A stretch of DNA of 64,000 nt from Isurus oxyrinchus (lineage: Eukaryota), in NCBI GenBank assembly GCA_026770705.1, contig JANJGN010000047.1, positions 3,782,001-3,846,000 of the forward strand, given 5' to 3'. Shown piece by piece: positions 2,895 to 64,000 of this stretch. A program made the position numbers and the translations under genes. A model generated the notes under the pieces. The model was not told the origin of the DNA and ran no database searches. It was given only the letters and a program-made list of their open reading frames with translations. Within the stretch, counting starts at the first letter, position 1. The number at the start of each line of letters is the position of its first letter.

Positions 2895-3920
2895 GCTATG
2901 TCAGAAACAGGTGATTTATGATTGAGAACGAAAAGGTGGCTGACCAACCAGATGGATACTTTTGTTCTGACTTCACAAAGGAGGATGTGGATGACGTGCC
3001 AGAAATGTTGGAGAGCAGGGTCTAGAGTGTAAGGGAGGAGCTGTAAGGGACCAGTATGGGCACAGAAATGGTGTTGGAGGGATTGATGGAATTGAGGGCC
3101 AGTGGAACCCTGGGGCCTGATTTTCTACCTCCCAGTGTACTTGGGGAGGTCGCCCTTTAAGTGATGGATGCACTGGTGGTCATATCCCGAGATTCTGTAG
3201 AGTCGGGTAAAGTTCCTGCGGGTTGGAGTTTAACTAATGGAACAGCAAAATTTGGAAGGGCAGTTAGAGAGAAGGCAGGGAGTTGTTGACCAGTCGGGCT
3301 GACAACGGTGGTGTGGAGAATTCAGGAGTTGAATTTGGAATATTTGGTAGGTGAGCCCTTGGGAAGCAGTGGCAGAATCGGACAGAGTCAGAGACGGACA
3401 GAAGACTGGTTGGCAGGCAAGAATTAGGGAGCGGTCATGAGCAGGTCTTTTACCGAATGGCAGGCAGTGAATAGAGCAGTGCTGCGGGGGTCGTTGCTGA
3501 CATCCAAATTATTCAGGGTGTGTGTCGATGGTTTGGATGAGGGAGCTGGGTGTGGTGTCTCCGAATTTGCAGATCGCATGGTTCTGGTTGGGAGGGTGAG
3601 CTGTGTGGAGGATGTGGAGATGCTTCGGTGTGATTTGGACAGGTTGAGTGGGTGGGCTGCTGCATGCCAGAAGCAGTGTGCTGGGGACGGATGTGAGTTT
3701 GTCCACTCTGGTCGCAGGGATGGGAGGGCAGATCGTTATCTGAATGGCCTTGAATTGAGTGAGGGGAGTGGGCAAAGAGGTATGGGGATCCTTGTGCACC
3801 TGCCATTGAGGGTAAGCATGCTAGTGCAGTGGTCAATGGGGGAGGCGGATTGTGTGTCGGCCTTCATAGCTGGAAGATTCGAGTAAAAGAGGGGGGATGT
3901 ATTGCTGCAAATATACAGAT
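2895..3920 (+). mobile_element. CR1 LINE ORF2 (RT) fragment with internal deletion and strong A-to-G skew
   Basis: ORF 3437-3886 FTEWQAV..GSLL..LFRVCVDGLDEG..VSEFADR..DLDRLSGWA..CEFVHSG..YLNG aligns by eye with the CR1 RT FADD region; the upstream part matches the pre-RT region (KSPGPD-like, NYRPVSLT-like). Confidence 0.85.
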
Positions 3921-4369
3921 TATCAAACTTCATATCCGAGTGTCACAAACACTGCTCATCATAACAAGGAGACACAGGAAAGGCACATTCTGGGGAGTTA
4001 ATTTATACTAGTGAAGTAGAAGGGATTAACACACTTGCCCAGGCTCTGCAAGTCCATTTCCCAAACTTCCAAACTCTGCCCATACGTATTGTTGAACCCC
4101 AGAATGCAGATCAGAAGTGGACGCAGCCTGTTGATTGTGTTTACCTTGACGGGCAGCCTCTGGAGGTACCCAGCCTGCTTTCGTGGTCCTACAATGTGGA
4201 AGAGGTACCCTCCTCGGCATGTGGAGTTGGGGCTGCTGAGGTCACCGGAAGGGGGACTCGGAGAGGACAGGTGCGCGTGGAGCCAATGGATTGTATAGAC
4301 ATGGTGATGTGCATTGTGGGATTATCCTGCATATTGGTGACTGAAAGTCCTTGTCTGAGTCATTGGCTG

Positions 4370-4880
4370 CGTGTGTGAGATAATGTGTATGTATGTGCCT
4401 GTGTGTGCATGTGTGTGTCTGTTCATTTGTGTGTTCATGAATGTGTGTGTGTAAGAGAGAAGGAGAGACGTGTATGTTTATTCCTGTATATTTCTGTGTG
4501 TGAAAACGGGTTTTTATCTTCAAATTTCTGCGAATGTGGAAACTCACGTGTGTTTATGTACCTGATATATGTGTAATGCTGTTAGTGTGTGCACGTGTGC
4601 TTTTCTGTGTGTTTGTGTGTCAGGGAGTGCTTGTGAGATTTTGTCCGTGTGCTTGAGTATCTCTGCTTGTGACAGTAATTATGTGAGCAGGTGTGCATCA
4701 TTTTTTGTTTGCCTATGTGTATTCATATGTGTGTCTGCGCATTTGCGCGTTTGTGTGATTTTTTGTGTGTGTGTGCGTGTTGTGTCTGTGTGTGTATTTC
4801 TGTGTGTGTTTGTGTGAGTGAGTGTTTCTTTGCACATGTGTGTTTGTGTGAGAGAGAGAGCGATAGGGAGAGAGTTTATG
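4370..4880. repeat. Degenerate (GT)n/(GA)n low-complexity tract
   Basis: Continuous gtgtgt-rich sequence ending in gagagag; generates spurious C/V-rich and H/T-rich ORFs. Confidence 0.9.
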
Positions 4881-4883
4881 TGA

Positions 4884-5550
4884 AACATAGGAACATAGAA
4901 ATATAGAAATTGGAGCAGGGGTAGGCCATTGGGCCCTTCGACCCTGCTCCATCATTCATTATGATCATTGCTGATCATCCAGCTCAATATCCTGCTCCAG
5001 CTTTTTTCCAACATCCTTTGAACCATTTCACCCCAAGAGCTATATCAAGTCTTCCTTTAAAACATGCAATGTTTTGGCCTGTACTAATTCATGTGGCAGC
5101 GAACTCCAAAGGATCAAGAACGATAGAGGTGTTGAAAACACAGCTTGACAAATACATGAATAGGACGGCAATAGAGGGATAGTGCAAAATGTTTTAGTTG
5201 ATGGTCAATATGATCGACGCAGGCTTGGAGCCGGAAGGACCTGTTCCTGTGCTGTACTTTTCTTTGTACTATGACATCCATTCCGTCTACCTCTCCAGAC
5301 CACGCCGGAACAACCAATCTTTCTGCAAGTTCATCGCTCACCAATACACTAAGTCGCTCCACAACTCTATCACTGAGTTGGAAATCCATTCCTTCTAACA
5401 CCTCAGCTTCTGTTAAGAACAGCCTGGCATGGCACCCACTACCACCATCCCTCAGGTTTACGTTCAAATCCAGTGCAGCACAATACTTGGAAAAGCCACT
5501 TCTGTCTCTTCTCAGAATGGGTAGTCTCGATCTCTCCCTCATCCCTATTA
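4884..5550 (-). mobile_element. CR1 3' end (minus) interrupted by a short plus-strand CR1 3' end (~5110-5272)
   Basis: Tail aacatagaacatagaaatatagaa followed by ggagcaggggtaggccatt..gccc; the nested piece ends in cctgttcctgtgctgtacttttctttgtactatg, a typical CR1 3' terminus. Confidence 0.7.
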
Positions 5551-5599
5551 ATTATTATTCACCAAGATTACAAGTGGATTTTTAGCCTCCTACATTACT

Positions 5600-6700
5600 G
5601 GGAATTCTGTGGATTGCTTCATCGCTGACCCCTTCCACGCTTTCCAAACGACCCATCTTTTTCATTCATATACGTCAGTCCAAATAATTGCCTTGTAACA
5701 GCAACAATCTTCATCTGTCGAAGCTTAACTCTTATTGGAAAAATCACCTTTGCATCTACAGCATTTCTCCAATAAAAGCAGAATAATTACATTAAATCCT
5801 TAAGAGTCCTAGCTATCCCTTTGTTTATGTGAAGTGAACATTATTTCTGATATTTTAACTGCTATGTTATTCTGCCTTTAGTTTACTGGTGTTGACTTGG
5901 AATAGACCACCTATCTATTATATAAAATAATTCAATTCCTGTCCTCCCTATGCATGACTTATCTGTGAGGCCTCCCGCTTCCTCCCTCGACTTCCTATTT
6001 CCATTTGTGGGGATAGACTGTTTACAATACGTATAACAATGCTGCTGTCATGCACACCAATCTTTATCATTATTCCTGCCATTCTGCTTCCTGTAATTTC
6101 TCAGCTGATTTTTCATATTCCTCCACCTTCATCACATCTGTATTAATTGGGCCACGTTCCACAACACTACTATAGAAATTATTTCCTCCATGCTCTGCCC
6201 ATAAGTCGGCTTCATTGGGGCACACAGGGATCTCGACCATGACTGTCCCATATCCTGCACTTCCGCCCTCGACCTGCTCCTCTGCATCAGCATCATGCTA
6301 GACTCCCATCTATACCTACTTTCCACAAATCTAAAGATCAATTATTTTACTGTGTTTGCAATTGGCACCTACTACATCAACAAATGCACTTTCTTCGTCA
6401 CCTGGTCTCTTTTGCTAATCATACGTGGACCGTTTTTCCTCTGGAAATCAGCTTTATTTCTGTACGAAACGGCAGAGCCCCCCTTAGAGGAATAATAAAT
6501 TTCACCCACATGCGTTACATTCAGAGCACTCTTTCCCTGATGTCTGTCATTTTTCAGGGCCACAACAAATCCATCCTGGTGAATTAGTCATGTTGGTGTA
6601 CTGCTTCTGCTTTCCTATACTGGATTCATTGAACATGCGGATATTGCTACAACTCACTAATGAGTCATTTTGTATCAAAGTTAGACGTTGTACTCATCTG
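5600..6700 (-). mobile_element. Highly decayed CR1 endonuclease/linker region
   Basis: Remnants such as ggcacctactacatc (cf. GVYYRPP on the minus strand); pyrimidine-rich antisense LINE composition. Confidence 0.45.
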
Positions 6701-9430: not shown

Positions 9431-10789
9431 ACAAGACAATTATTTTATTTATATTTTTGTGAAGTCAACTTGGAAGATCCATGATTTTTTTTTCTGTGCA
9501 TTGTACGTGATACAAACAGTTGGAGAGATGCATTGTTGCTCAAATTGTTAAACTGCTCACCGCGGCTGAACAACTGCACAGATTGTGAATACTAAAGTTT
9601 GAAAACTGGCTGGCTAATAGAATGGAGAAGCATGATGTAATGGCCAAAATCATCGTTGAAAACAGATTGGAGAGCATTGGAGAGAACAAAATAATGCAAA
9701 GCTATCATCAGTGTGAATCATGCATAAGGTGGGACAGCTGATTTGCTCACAACAATTATTGAGACAAAACTGATTTTAAGTTGCACATACGATGGTGCCA
9801 CATATAGTGCAGAGTAATGGTGGATCTGCTCGGTGTGAGTTAAAACTGTCAAGCCTTCAAGAGAGTTTTTTATTGAAGCTTCATTTTCCTTCCTTACTGC
9901 AGACTAGGCATAATAGCGTCATGTTTTCATTTCCATGATGTCAGTTGACAGCTTCACTATCGTGATTTTAGTACCATCTGACAATTCAGTAGAAAAAACA
10001 ACATGATTTCAAGAACATGTTTAAATTTAATGCTCGAAAATGTGCTGAGGGAATTGATCACACATGATTTCTTCCCAGCTTACTGGTTCCATAACACAAA
10101 TGTGCACAGGTAATGATGTTTTCTTGTGAAATTCAACTGTTAAAGGCATTTTTGCACTATTATTCTGCTGAAATATATCCCTTTTTATCTAATCCTACTC
10201 TGATTTTAATCAGTTTATCCAACTGCCAAATCCATCAGCTCCAGCCTTCCTTCCAGCTCGGATATGACATTGCCCCTGTCTTCCTAAATATATGATTCAT
10301 TGTCTAGGCCTCCAAATTACTCTCCCAATGGTATCCAGAACCTTGAACTCAATTCGATGTGAGTTCATTTATTTTATTTTAAAGACTGTTTCGGCAAAAC
10401 ACTCATTGATTCGCATGTACCAGTAGAACGAAGCAGCTGTAGTAAACGTTGTCACAAGGAATCCCTCCCGTTCGAATGCAGCCCAAATGACAATTTCAGA
10501 CGTTGGATTCCGCCTGTGTAAACTGACTTCCGCCTCTCGGCTGGCACTGCACTGCAGAGTCACTCAGTCCTTTCTGTGGAATCGATAAAATTGATACAAA
10601 TTGTTTCAAGATTTCCTGAATCATTGCTGGTTTTAAAAATAAAACCCAATCAAAGGTTCAAAAAAAAACAGCGTGAATCGGATGATGCTCCAGTAAAGTA
10701 CTAACATCAACCACAGATTGTGCCACCTCCTGCTGTGGCCCCACATCTTAACAATAACATCATTGCTTTATCTTTCCCTCTCTCCAATT

Positions 10790-11590
10790 TAACATGGCGG
10801 CGATTGCATTCCTTTCCCGAGGAAAATGCGTTCTGCCTAAATGTATAAGTGGGCACCAGCTGGGAAAGGCTGTGACCGATCTCCCTGTCGTTCTACCTGA
10901 AGCGATATTGCAATGGATAGGGGCGCTTTATTTCCTAGATTACTTCCTGAAAATTACTCCTGTGTGCTACCTCATTATCACCTTGTCCTTTGAAGCAACA
11001 GTGCTTTCCATATGTTTCACAGTCGCTTTCAACTTTGACCGATTCATGGCCATTTGTTGCAAAAAACTGAGAACAAAGTATTGTACCGAGAAAACTGAAG
11101 CTGTCGATTTCGGAACAGTGAGCGTGGTGGGCTGCTTTGTTATGATCTCGTGGTACTTTATCCGGGAACCAATAAGTAAACTTGATAATATATTGTTACT
11201 TCACCCGTATCATCCGTATATTTGATGCTCTTCTGATTTTGCTTCTCAATCTCCCAATGATCAGACATCTTGTGGTTTCCAATAGTATCCGTTGAAGTCT
11301 CCAGGGCTGTAATAAGAAAGAGGATCGCTAGGAACTAGAGCTGTTGAGCCGAAGGATGTCCACCATTTTAATGTTCAGAATTTCTGGCAATTTAATTCTG
11401 TTAACGGCATTCCACCTAGTTTATAGCAATTATCTGTATTTCCACAAACTGTTAATATAACAGAAATCAGAGCAGCAATGCTGCAGCGTCTCAATAATTG
11501 CACCAACACGTATTCACATTCTTACCCGGATTAAATTCAGAGAGGAGTTGGTGGACGATGTAAAACGCCCATTCAACCTTTATCCAAAAA
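10790..11590 (+). pseudogene. GPR139-like GPCR pseudogene (main 7TM exon)
   Basis: ORF 10794-11225 LSRGKCVLPKCI..TPVC..FTVAFNFDRFMAICCKKLRTKYCTEKT..GTVSVVGC..WYF is clearly paralogous to 48589-49487. It continues out of frame as LILLLN..IRHLVVSNSIR*SL..SRRMSTILMFRISGNLILL..MLQRLNNCTNT..KFREE. Stops, frameshifts and deletions; expected acceptor AG after the pyrimidine tract reads AA (ctctccaa-tt-taac). Confidence 0.85.
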
Positions 11591-29429: not shown

Positions 29430-29675
29430 TTAATTCTCAATAGAGATAAAAACAAAAAAACTGCAGATGCTGGAAATCCAAAACAAAAACAGCATTACCT
29501 GGAAAAACTCAGCAGGTCTGGCAGCATCGGTGGAGAAGAAAAGAAGAGAAGAAAAGATGGTTCTGTCGAAGGGTCATGAGGACTCGAAACGTCAACTCTT
29601 TTCTTCTCCGCCGATGCTGCCAGACCTGCTGAGTTTTTCCAGGTAATTCTGTTTTTGTTTTGTTAATTCTCAATA
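29430..29675. mobile_element. Short inverted Penelope-like pLTR pair with 13-bp TSD
   Basis: TSD ttaattctcaata at 29430-29442 and 29663-29675; left arm ~29480-29545 (plus tail 29448-29479) is the reverse complement of 29597-29661. Confidence 0.9.
29560..29597 (+). ncRNA. Minimal hammerhead ribozyme-like motif (best-preserved plus-strand copy)
   Basis: gtt-CTGTCGA-a-gggtc-atgag-gactc-GAAACGTC-aac; palindromic ACGT in place of helix III; predicted GUC cleavage site at 29591-29593. Confidence 0.7.
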
Positions 29676-29789
29676 TTACATTTCAGGCAAACATGGCAGC
29701 AGTCAGGAAAATCCATCAGGTGATCACTCTCAATTTTCATATTATGTGATAACTTCCTGCTCTAATCCACGTCAATTAAAATGAACCAA

Positions 29790-30495
29790 AATAAAAGATA
29801 AAAGCAAAAAAAAAACCCTGCGTATTCTGGTAATCCAAAACAAAACAAATATACCTGGAAAAACTAAATGTGTCTGAGGGCATTTGCGTAGAGGAACACA
29901 CTTAATGTTTCGAGTCCGTATAACTCTTCAACAGAACTAAGAAAAAGTAGAAAAGTGGTGAAATATAAGTTGGTTTAGAGGGGAGGGATGGGACAGGTAG
30001 AGCTGGATAGAGGACCAGAGATAGGTGGAGATAGCCAAAACATGTCACAGACAAAAGGACAAAAAGGTGTTGAAGCTGGTGATATTATCTATGGAATCTG
30101 ATAATAAAGATACAGATAGGCCTAATGGGGGTGGAGTGTGGGGATGGGATAGAAATAGACTAAAAGGCAGAGATAAAGCACTGGACAGAAATACTAATGA
30201 AAGTAATGGAAATAGGTGGGAAAATAAAAACCTATATAAATATTTGGAAAAAAGGGGGATTGGAAAGTGGTTGGGGATGGAGGACAGAGTTCAATACCTG
30301 AAATTGTTGAACTGGATATTCTGCCCAGAAGGCTGTAAAGTGCCTACTCGGAAGATGAGGTGCTCTTCCTCCAGCTTGCGTTGAGCATCACTGGAACAAT
30401 GCTGCATGCCAAAGACGGACATGTGGGCATGAGAACAGGGCGGACTGTTGAAATCGCAAGCGACAGGGAGGTCTGGGTCATGCTCGAGGACAAAC
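29790..30495 (-). mobile_element. 5'-truncated Penelope-like element (GIY-YIG C-terminus, 3' UTR, pLTR), second subfamily
   Basis: Colinear with 58430-59110; the minus strand reads HDPDLPVACDFN..SHAHMSVFGMQHCSSDAQRKLEEEHLIFRVGTLQPSG; hammerhead-like motif at 29900-29938(-). Confidence 0.85.
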
Positions 30496-31217: not shown

Positions 31218-31346
31218 GAAGTGGCGGACTGTAACACAAACAGAATTAGCAGAAAAAACTCAGTAGGTCTGGCAGCATCGGCGGACAACAAAAGAGTTGA
31301 GGTTTCGAGTCCTCATGACCCTTCAACAGAACTGAAGTGGGGGACT
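31218..31346 (-). mobile_element. Solo Penelope pLTR fragment with hammerhead-like motif and imperfect 13-bp TSD
   Basis: gaagtggcggact (31218-31230) / gaagtgggggact (31334-31346) flank a ~100-bp pLTR; minus strand reads agtt-CTGTTGA-agggtcatgaggactc-GAAACCTC-aact (31296-31333). Confidence 0.8.
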
Positions 31347-41262: not shown

Positions 41263-41435
41263 TTATGTTTCTAAAACAAAAACAGAATTACCTGGAAAAA
41301 CTCAGCAGGTCTGGCAGCATCGGCGGAGAAGAAAAGAGTTGACGTTTCGAGTCCTCATGACCCATCGACAGAACTTGATTTCGAGTCCAAGAAAGAGTTG
41401 AAATATAAGCTGGTTAGCTGGTTTATGTTTCTAAA
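41263..41435 (-). mobile_element. Young solo Penelope pLTR with hammerhead-like motif and 13-bp TSD
   Basis: TSD ttatgtttctaaa at 41263-41275 and 41423-41435; nearly identical to the 19.4 kb left arm; agctggtt is duplicated at the junction; motif at 41337-41375(-) is agtt-CTGTCGA-tgggtcatgaggactc-GAAACGTC-aact. Confidence 0.9.
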
Positions 41436-61019: not shown

Positions 61020-62437
61020 CGAGCTGCCAAATGTAGATTGAGTCACCACTTTTAACGATATGATGGTGGACAAACGACAGTTACCATGAAAAGAATTAAT
61101 GCGCAATTTTTAACAAGCACACATCCCTTTAACACGTACACATCAGCCCCGCGGCTAAATGAGAATTCCGCTACCGTGACCAACAGAAGTGGTTCACCAT
61201 ACCATGGCGACAAACTCCTGGAAGGGAAAGCTTTTACAGTTCAGCAAAAGAGGACCTACGATTTACAAGGATGCAGTAAAGAGAATATGATATTACACCA
61301 ACTGCCATCTTTAAATCAGTTTGGAAACATTTCTCTAAATTATGCAGATGAAAAAAAATCAATCGTGAGATTCAACATTGAACCATTGGACACAGGGAAA
61401 GGTGAATTTATAATGGGGAATAGGGAAATGGCTCAAGAGCGATTCAGAATCAACGTGAGACCAAATATCAAGTGAATATAAGGAACTTGTGTAAATCGGT
61501 ACCAGCAAGTAAACCGTGCTGGAGACATTCATGGGACTTAGTGGGAAGCAATCTTCTGGACCTTCCCACTTGCAGCATAGAATATTACAGAAGAAGGAGC
61601 TGCAAAGATAGCGGATGAATTGGATTCGATCTATCAGAATTACTTCGAATCCAGAACAGTTCTGAAGGACTGGAGGGTAACAAACCCTAACATTTAGGAA
61701 GGGTGGTAGAAAGAAAACGGGGAACTATTAGCTTCACATCACTGCCAGGCAAAATGATATATATTTTTTTCTATTCGGGATGTGCTAATAGAACAGTTGG
61801 AAAATCACAATGTTATTCAATAATTTCAATACAGATTTGTAAAGGGGAAATTGAGTATGGCAATTTTATCAGCATTTTTAAGAATGCAATTATGTGGGGG
61901 TTAAAGCGAACACAATTGAATGTACTAACTTTGGATTTTCAGAAAGCATCCGATAAAATATTTTTAAAGGTCCTTACGCAAATTTAGGAATTATGGTATT
62001 TGACGTAATATATTAATATGGAAAATGAAGTGGTTAATGGATTGACAACAGAGAGCAGGAAGAAAGGCGACATGTTTACCTTAGCACGCTGTAATTAGTG
62101 AGGTGCCAGATGAGTGAATAAATGGGTCTCAGCTATTTGCATTCGATATTAATGGATGCGATGTTGGAGCTGAGTTCGAAGTGTAGAATAAGGGTTAATG
62201 TTAGACTGGCCGCAGTGTGATGTAAAGAGTCATATGACAGTAGACCAGGGACAGGCAGGTTCGCATATCGGACAGACATGAACGAGAGGCACGTGTAGAA
62301 AACAGCATGGAGATAGCACTTATTCTGGCTGTACTGATGCTTTTGCATAGAGTTATGTGTTACCAATAAACAGTGACTGTTCAATAGTCTGAACCTTGTA
62401 ATTTCTGTTCCTATGTCTTATGGTCTTATGGTCTTCG
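61020..62437 (+). mobile_element. Decayed CR1 ORF2 (linker to RT) with 3' tail
   Basis: GEFIMGNREMA (61086-61475), LDFQKASDKI (61703-61987), ggtgccag..gggtctcagctattt; ends in tatgtcttatggtcttatggtctt. Confidence 0.75.
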
Positions 62438-63199: not shown

Positions 63200-64000
63200 C
63201 TACCAGATCGAGATTTATGACCCACTGGGCAGATCAGGCGCGGTATTGGTGGCTTTAGTGGACATTTTTTATAAGTGACAAATGAAATTGAACCCTGAAA
63301 AGTCTGAGGTGATACAGTTTGGAAAGAGTAATTTGACAAGGCACTATTCAATGAAACACATGGCACTAAGAAGTCATGAGGAACAAAGCAACATTGGCGT
63401 GTGTGTCCATACATCCATATATGAAGGCGGAGTGGCATGTTAGTGCATTGTTTAAAAAGACATTTGCGACACTTGGCTTTATAAATTGAGGCAGAGATAA
63501 CAAAATTAGAAAGGTAATGTTGGAATTGTATAGAACCTTGGTGAGGCCACAGCTGGAGTACTGTGTGCAGTTCTGGTCGCCACATTATAGGAAGGATATG
63601 ATTGCACTGGAGGGGGTGCAAAGGAGATTCACCAGGATGTTGCCTAGGAAGAAACATTTAAGTTATGAAGAGAGCGTGGATAGATTTGGATTGATTGTTT
63701 TCTAGCAGAGAAGACTAGGGGGCGACCTCTTCGAGGTGTACAAGATTTTGAGGGGAATGGACAGGGTGGATTAGGGATCAGCTGTTCCACTTAGTTGAAG
63801 GGCCTGTCACGAGGGGACACATGTTCAAGGTGAGTGGTAGGATGTTTAGCGATAAGGAGAGGAAAAATATTTTTACCCAGAGGGTGTTGATCTGCTGTCT
63901 GGGAGGGTGGTCGAGGCGGGTTGCCTCAGATCCTTTATAAAGTAACTGGATGAACACTTGGCACGTCATAACATTCAAAGGTAAGGACCAGTGCTTATAA
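63200..64000 (+). mobile_element. CR1 LINE 3' part (same subfamily as 7618-9010 and 35838-37300), running to the window end
   Basis: MLELYRTLVRPQLEYCVQFWSPHYRKDMIALEGVQRRFTRMLP (63517-63705); the 3' UTR matches the reverse complement of 35900-36200. Confidence 0.9.

Follow-up and report, generated by a model that had tools for sequence, protein, structure and literature searches.

Three components of the phenomenon reported here are known: edited proviruses, edited pseudogenes made by L1 in culture and APOBEC scars in endogenous retroviruses (ERVs). Among 235 processed pseudogenes that L1 inserted in cultured human cells, 3 carried ADAR-type edits, and these lay only within the stretch of RNA that had been paired; L1 also builds inserts from two transcripts (PMC11702581). 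A>G-hypermutated retroviruses comprise RAV-1, avian leukosis virus and HTLV-2/STLV-3 (as cited in PMC8586724). In ERVs, APOBEC deamination of C in the cDNA of LTR elements has left sense-strand G>A changes; in that screen other cluster types were negligible, and LINEs lay outside its scope (PMC4866542). An A>G-rich endogenous retrovirus end without ADAR context is described (PMC12548423), and A>G clusters have been taken as RNA editing or as a control (PMC2873906).

In transcripts, ADAR hyper-editing is accompanied by depletion of 5' G and occurs on inverted-repeat substrates (PMC4365171; the 5' G depletion also in PMC8586724 and PMC5625713). CR1 pairs are ADAR targets in chicken, hyper-editing occurs in elephant shark RNA, and the 3' neighbour preferred is G in mammals and reptiles and A in a second group of species (PMC5625713). 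RNA editing is treated as non-heritable, and in the published screens for edited retroelements consulted here the subject is G>A change by APOBEC in LTR elements. No description of a germline-fixed A>G-hypermutated LINE copy was found in the literature searched, in which coverage of subscription journals is incomplete.

Here we analyse such a candidate in a 64 000-nucleotide stretch of the Isurus oxyrinchus assembly GCA_026770705.1 (contig JANJGN010000047.1, positions 3,782,001 to 3,846,000), referred to below as the window. With the L1-made pseudogenes it would share clustered ADAR-type changes introduced through a LINE reverse transcriptase (RT) and an insert made of two RNAs; those inserts were somatic, arose in induced culture and involved Alu pairs (PMC11702581), whereas the present one is CR1-based, old, germline-fixed and edited at one third of A over 1.5 kb. 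The hypermutated retroviruses likewise record ADAR-type A>G in DNA via reverse transcription, but they are exogenous and mostly from culture (PMC8586724), and this is a non-LTR fragment in a host genome. APOBEC-edited ERVs are also strand-specific, context-biased fossils of hypermutation in germline retroelements (PMC4866542), there of G>A in LTR elements and here of A>G in a LINE. Hyper-edited transcripts offer the same 5' G depletion, an inverted-repeat substrate like the one proposed here and, in chicken, the same CR1 target (PMC4365171, PMC5625713); what is known there in RNA would here be a product in DNA, with the partner arm outside the insert. PittSINE, attributed to template switching by the CR1 RT, similarly joins a CR1 3' tail to unrelated RNA-derived sequence, but it is unedited (PMC5729268) and the chimera in the window founded no mobile family.

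Materials and methods

The reference for family A was the column majority of 31 dispersed copies, comprising 11 of 21 copies from a search with window 3480-3920 and 20 of 21 from a search with the upstream half. Because membership was decided by similarity to the edited copy, the set is skewed towards young members and, if at all, towards those richer in G. Donor-diagnostic sites were defined as changes common to at least three of four donor clades.

Genome-wide scans used a 25-base family motif with any purine allowed at A positions; a strict version demanded G at three TA sites. From the per-site rates, the chance of detecting an edited copy was 0.71 x 0.71 x 0.55 = 0.28.

Results and discussion

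The A>G-hypermutated CR1 fragment

Window 2900-3918 encodes a decayed CR1 ORF2 on the + strand. This fragment, referred to as the arm, consists of an upstream ORF2 piece (2900..3391, +; family-A columns 779-1271) and an RT-domain piece (3392..3918, +; columns 1460-1987), joined across an internal deletion of ~188 bp (columns 1272-1459) that is common to the paralogs and is spanned by contigs from three public sequencing runs. The last family column in the arm is 1987 (of ~2567), so that the family-A 3' end is missing. In the paralogs it is ~510 bp longer at its 5' end, reaching column ~268, and the whole arm there covers columns 268-1987 minus 1272-1459. Compared with the paralogs checked, the window copy has lost ~2.3 kb at 2900/2901, made up of the 510 bp of the arm and ~1.8 kb of host flank. 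No Pfam domain was found in the edited reading frame at 3428-3883. Splicing was considered as the cause of the 188-bp deletion or of the junction at the 3' end of the arm and was rejected, no GT-AG fit being seen by eye.

The arm contains 23.8% A and 37.1% G, compared with 32.7% A and 29.3% G in the family majority over the same columns, and is G-rich and A-poor as a first-pass annotation of the window had described it. TA and AA, which it named as the dinucleotides hit, fall from 67 to 30 and from 104 to 55, respectively. The five parental peptide motifs that it gave all occur in the translation of the family majority, and the altered peptides of the window read as it quoted them.

Duplicated copies and assembly check

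Among 40 scored matches to window 3480-3920, 19 were at 94-100% identity and 21 at 74-76%, the latter across the large chromosomes; the search with the upstream half gave the same split of close and distant matches. The close matches are the window copy and 18 more, located on contigs C47, C62, C87, C114 and C303. All 18 share both flanks with the window copy over many kilobases and are therefore segmental duplicates, pairwise identity among the duplicates being 94.7-99.9%. There was one insertion site, duplicated 19-fold later together with its gene cluster.

The position of the copy in a highly duplicated region could point to an artefact of assembly or sequencing, but the chance of this is negligible: of the 516 A columns of the arm, 154 read G in at least ~90% of the 19 copies, which are spread over five contigs (329 are G in none), and the G-rich arm recurs in contigs of 4/4 public runs. 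These runs come from four studies and represent a second sample under the same organism label and samples under two other labels. One of these contigs, at ~95% identity, spans the 3' junction of the arm at 3918. An assembly artefact is excluded by these contigs. The data further suggest that the insert predates a species split. At several A positions in window 2933-3888 the contigs of another organism label have G, from which the original editing would have been slightly denser than the window copy displays.

Composite insert and donor loci

In 3/3 distant paralogs of the cluster (L068-L070) the 5' host flank runs directly into the sequence that begins at window 5273. This empty site defines an insert of ~2.9 kb with four modules, in the order edited sense CR1, spacer X, antisense family-A CR1 end and sense family-B 3' tail. 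Spacer X (3919..4891, +) is an unedited segment from a multi-copy donor locus and is divided into a non-repetitive part (3919-4350), which we take to resemble a decayed Harbinger-type transposon, and a TG-rich simple repeat (~4350-4870). Module C (4892..5116, - strand) is the unedited 3' end of a family-A CR1 (columns 2341-2567). Family B, a second CR1-type family, contributes the last module, an unedited 3' tail (5121..5272, +) whose terminal repeat ends at the 3' border of the insertion, and the 3' host flank (5273..5700) adjoins the 5' host flank directly in the empty-site paralogs. The end of the tail coincides exactly with the border of the empty site and no host sequence was lost. No target-site duplication was seen at the border on comparison with the three empty-site paralogs, at most 1-3 bases being shared. 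CR1-clade inserts often lack such a duplication.

Module C is continuous with X in the donor loci. In 15/23 of these (11/16 and 4/7) X is directly followed by a long antisense family-A CR1, 2.4 kb or more, which spans the edited columns. Module C shares 4/6 donor-diagnostic changes and the edited arm 1/26; the arm is therefore a different CR1 copy from that of the donor. X and module C originate together from a multi-copy donor locus. The family-B tail was present in 0/23 donor loci read at length. An unedited sense arm was found neither beside X, in 40 scored junction matches of 1196 candidates, nor upstream of X in 17 + 16 + 7 donor stretches (partly the same loci), nor in 20 further 10-kb stretches. 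The sense CR1 pieces near the donors belong to other families (58-74% identity) or share only 3/49 derived states.

Some further features were observed at these loci. At 13-20 kb upstream of two donor loci, CR1 pieces from related families adjoin in sense and antisense orientation and are unedited (L178:3087-6558 and L188:5593-9037). Near a donor locus a 630-codon stop-free frame lies on the - strand (L102:4047-5943), presumably a Penelope-type reverse transcriptase. At the join of module C to the family-B tail (window 5090-5150), the antisense CR1 end reaches column 2341, and the tail takes over from a roughly homologous place (~column 2385) on the opposite strand. The two RNAs would thus have been able to base-pair here, and this may have eased a template switch.

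Substitution spectrum and neighbour context

Relative to the family-A majority, 111 of 333 A in the window arm are changed to G and 15 of 234 T to C (Fisher p = 1.2e-15), a roughly five-fold difference and not the symmetry of GC-biased conversion. The majority of the 19 paralogs, 510 bp longer, gives 169/516 for A>G against 19/345 for T>C (p = 6e-24), which corresponds to a net A>G excess of ~141 sites. Symmetry holds in the arm for the three further pairs compared, G>A with C>T, G>T with C>A and A>T with T>A, and A>T and A>C do not exceed their complements; the excess is thus of A>G alone. The substitutions had been called overwhelmingly A>G in the first-pass annotation. A>G is indeed the only type in excess, but it accounts for 44% of the substitutions in the window arm (111/251), the rest being a strand-symmetric, transversion-rich background of ~13%. 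An APOBEC-type signature was not found in the arm (G>A 23/299, C>T 16/154, p = 0.38).

The A>G rate depends strongly on the 5' neighbour (chi-square p = 1e-8), being 0.61 after T (37/61), 0.45 after A (44/98), 0.29 after C (18/63) and 0.14 after G (12/88) in the window arm, and 0.56, 0.44, 0.27 and 0.16, respectively, in the paralog majority. The survival of A after G, with the depletion of 5' G at changed sites, had been noticed from the letters and is borne out by these counts. Among triplets TAA is changed most often (20/28), and GAG and CAC least. The 3' neighbour has no significant effect on the rate in the arm (p = 0.10-0.21); a 3' G is not preferred, and the highest values stand before A (0.41-0.45; odds ratio 1.39 after allowing for the 5' base).

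In the paralog majority the A>G changes are spread evenly over the three codon positions (69/189, 54/184 and 46/143), and they make 115 codons non-synonymous and 28 synonymous, which excludes an origin in an active lineage. Changes in the arm that date from after the duplication have no excess of A>G. The one-strand burst of A>G in 2900-3918 is confirmed as real and well controlled.

Controls

The family-A majority has an ORF open across ~820 codons, and the 31 dispersed copies lie 3-7% away from it, with 1.0-2.9% A>G and 0.7-3.6% T>C. Eleven age-matched donor CR1s, 12-18% diverged and with the same transversion-rich background as the arm, have 5.1-6.9% A>G, 3.8-7.3% T>C and a flat 5' context. 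The A-rich copies originally offered for comparison proved unsuitable, since they belong to other CR1 families (61481-62171 is 58% and 63454-63890 is 63% identical to family A); the dispersed family copies and age-matched donors, as proper controls, nevertheless lead to the same answer.

Spacer X (A>G 5/94, T>C 5/86) and module C (5/62 and 3/57) are unedited, as is the family-B tail, in which 0/41 A are changed. In the host flanks A>G amounts to 15/269 (5') and 5/95 (3'), and these non-LINE flanks are symmetric, the outcome on which the first reading depended. Outside the arm A>G lies close to the T>C rate of the same module or flank where this was measured. Editing is confined to the first module and ends at its border.

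An origin without editing, through a G-rich CR1 subfamily, GC-biased conversion, transcription-linked asymmetry or an error-prone polymerase (Pol eta, with its WA motif), is highly improbable. Pol eta also favours a WA context, but polymerase errors would also raise A>T and A>C, which are without excess. Neither a raised T>C rate nor asymmetry in the flanks and neighbouring modules was found, although the background of the region is transversion-rich. An active subfamily is excluded by the wrecked ORF together with the lack of third-position bias, and the 18 near-identical relatives that might have represented one share both flanks and are hence segmental duplicates.

Background divergence is alike in the arm, module C, X and the tail (12-16%). 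With 15/124 against 161/1010 (p = 0.30) the tail does not come out as younger than the arm, so that decay of the arm in the genome before the insertion is not supported. Repeats of the duplicated clusters (that of the window; L088-L097, L101 and L134-L138) have about as many transitions as transversions, and young dispersed copies a ratio of ~2:1. Age, hit selection or a regional mutation process could explain the transversion-rich background of these clusters.

Origin of the insert

We consider it very probable that an ADAR-edited RNA was fixed in germline DNA by reverse transcription, and in this the inference of the first-pass annotation stands. Its other part, that the CR1 retrotransposed its own edited RNA, is not supported: the arm lacks its own 3' end and is one module of an insert that ends in an unedited family-B tail. 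For the edited fragment we somewhat favour a passenger route, by way of a chimeric insertion for which the family-B CR1 tail provided the priming. The best explanation as a whole, in which ADAR-edited duplex RNA became the passenger of the RT of another LINE, giving a chimeric insert that was later duplicated, is assigned a probability of about 0.6.

According to this explanation, the sense CR1 fragment would have paired with the long antisense family-A CR1 beyond X, as a hairpin in cis or, equally possibly, in trans, and ADAR would have deaminated the sense RNA along the long dsRNA. The A>G changes lie on the CR1 sense strand, which implies deamination of the sense RNA before copying. X and module C would have escaped editing because they were unpaired, the sense arm stopping at column 1987; a donor layout with an arm ending at this column predicts the editing boundary observed. 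The RT may then have started on the family-B tail RNA, which was the likely handle for reverse transcription, as its place at the target border suggests, and have moved onto the unpaired part of the edited RNA by template switching or through prior RNA ligation. Two-transcript L1 inserts (PMC11702581) and CR1 chimeras (PMC5729268) are precedents for such a transfer. The spacer would have been copied first and the edited arm afterwards, with inosine read as G. The insert, which looks functionless, would since have decayed neutrally. For the enzyme, 28 matches to A_deamin (PF02137) on seven contigs lie above the Pfam cut-off, and ADAR1/2, ADAD and ADAT are all possible among them. Two details of the proposed duplex were examined. 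No gaps in editing were seen where donor clades have deletions (13/43 and 11/30 sites edited), although these deletions may be later, and the A:C-mismatch preference could be read at five sites, too few, of which two agreed.

The arrival of all four modules in one event is inferred; no locus with an intermediate form came to light, but nested events at the DNA level are also possible, the ~13% of later mutation blurring the junctions. In one such history an autonomous family-A RNA, 3' end included, was edited by ADAR and retrotransposed in cis, and X, module C and the tail replaced the 3' part later. It would account for editing over the whole arm, for an arm that matches the family majority and not the donor (1/26), as expected of a master-derived RNA, and for a background divergence of the arm no different from that of the tail. 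We nevertheless regard it as unlikely. The tail lies exactly at the empty-site border, where later independent events would place it only by chance; the family-A 3' end that is present is antisense, unedited and donor-derived; and no second edited copy occurs among ~2,205 other motif-intact sites. In human cells, moreover, ADAR1 restricts L1 without editing (PMC5224506).

Alternatively, the deaminated strand could have been DNA in an RNA:DNA hybrid, either within an R-loop or as cDNA formed when an antisense donor transcript was copied by twin priming. DNA in such hybrids can serve as an ADAR substrate, and the order of sense arm, X and antisense C would match the geometry of twin priming with the arm as the cDNA strand. 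This origin is very unlikely, however, as it requires the CR1 to come from the donor and the arm is without 25/26 of the donor-diagnostic changes; X and module C, which hybrid copying would equally have produced, show editing on neither strand, and a net editing density of 27% over 1.5 kb is typical of dsRNA hyper-editing. Twin priming from donor antisense RNA was itself rejected for the lack of donor changes in the arm, although its geometry fits.

The insert is of wider interest. A clean ADAR signature, a traced donor of the flanking modules and an empty site together indicate that RNA rich in inosine can pass through reverse transcription and become a fixed part of the germline DNA of a vertebrate. 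More tentatively, and with odds slightly below even, the CR1 RT captured the loop and one arm of a hyper-edited inverted-repeat host transcript, and genomes of the lineage hold a fossil editome; if this is true, the paired region, source locus and neighbour preference of the enzyme could be read from DNA alone. Such copies would offer a DNA-only measure of past ADAR specificity and a way to ask if LINE intermediates are destroyed by editing or if it does no more than mark passengers. Repeat copies shifted by A>G also risk being mis-aged or falsely split into subfamilies.

Frequency of edited copies

The genome contains 2,224 motif-intact sites, the family motif being A-rich. The strict triple-G version occurs at 19 sites, and 19/19 are flank-sharing duplicates of the window insertion. 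The genome motif search revealed no G-rich CR1 subfamily, of the kind whose dispersed copies would carry these G states between unrelated flanks, and the scan for further edited copies returned none at strict-motif sites beyond the 19 duplicates. With 0 among ~2,205 others, similarly edited copies make up less than roughly 0.5% of motif-intact copies, an estimate biased to young copies. A second motif gave 17 matches, of which 11 were paralogs; of the other six, five aligned and were unedited and one had no alignment above threshold. In 99 non-paralog alignments, from 67 partly redundant loci, no comparable asymmetry was found (lowest p = 0.03). Editing is rare in family A and gives no sign of bulk restriction; the earlier suggestion of ADAR restriction of a LINE is accordingly not supported.

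The surrounding gene cluster

The window region is a segmentally duplicated receptor cluster. It carries an intact 308-residue ORF for a rhodopsin-family GPCR (48592..49515, - strand; Pfam 7tm_1, E = 2.7e-15) and a decayed GPCR relative found by tblastn (10761-11574, +). We take the receptor type to resemble the expanded GPR139-like genes of cartilaginous fish, and receptors and repeats alike suit a shark genome. A short young repeat, with copies 90-99% identical, is present at window 19404-19978, 29445-29977, 31233-31333, 41270-41415 and 58438-58581; some of its copies form inverted pairs and are possible present-day ADAR substrates.
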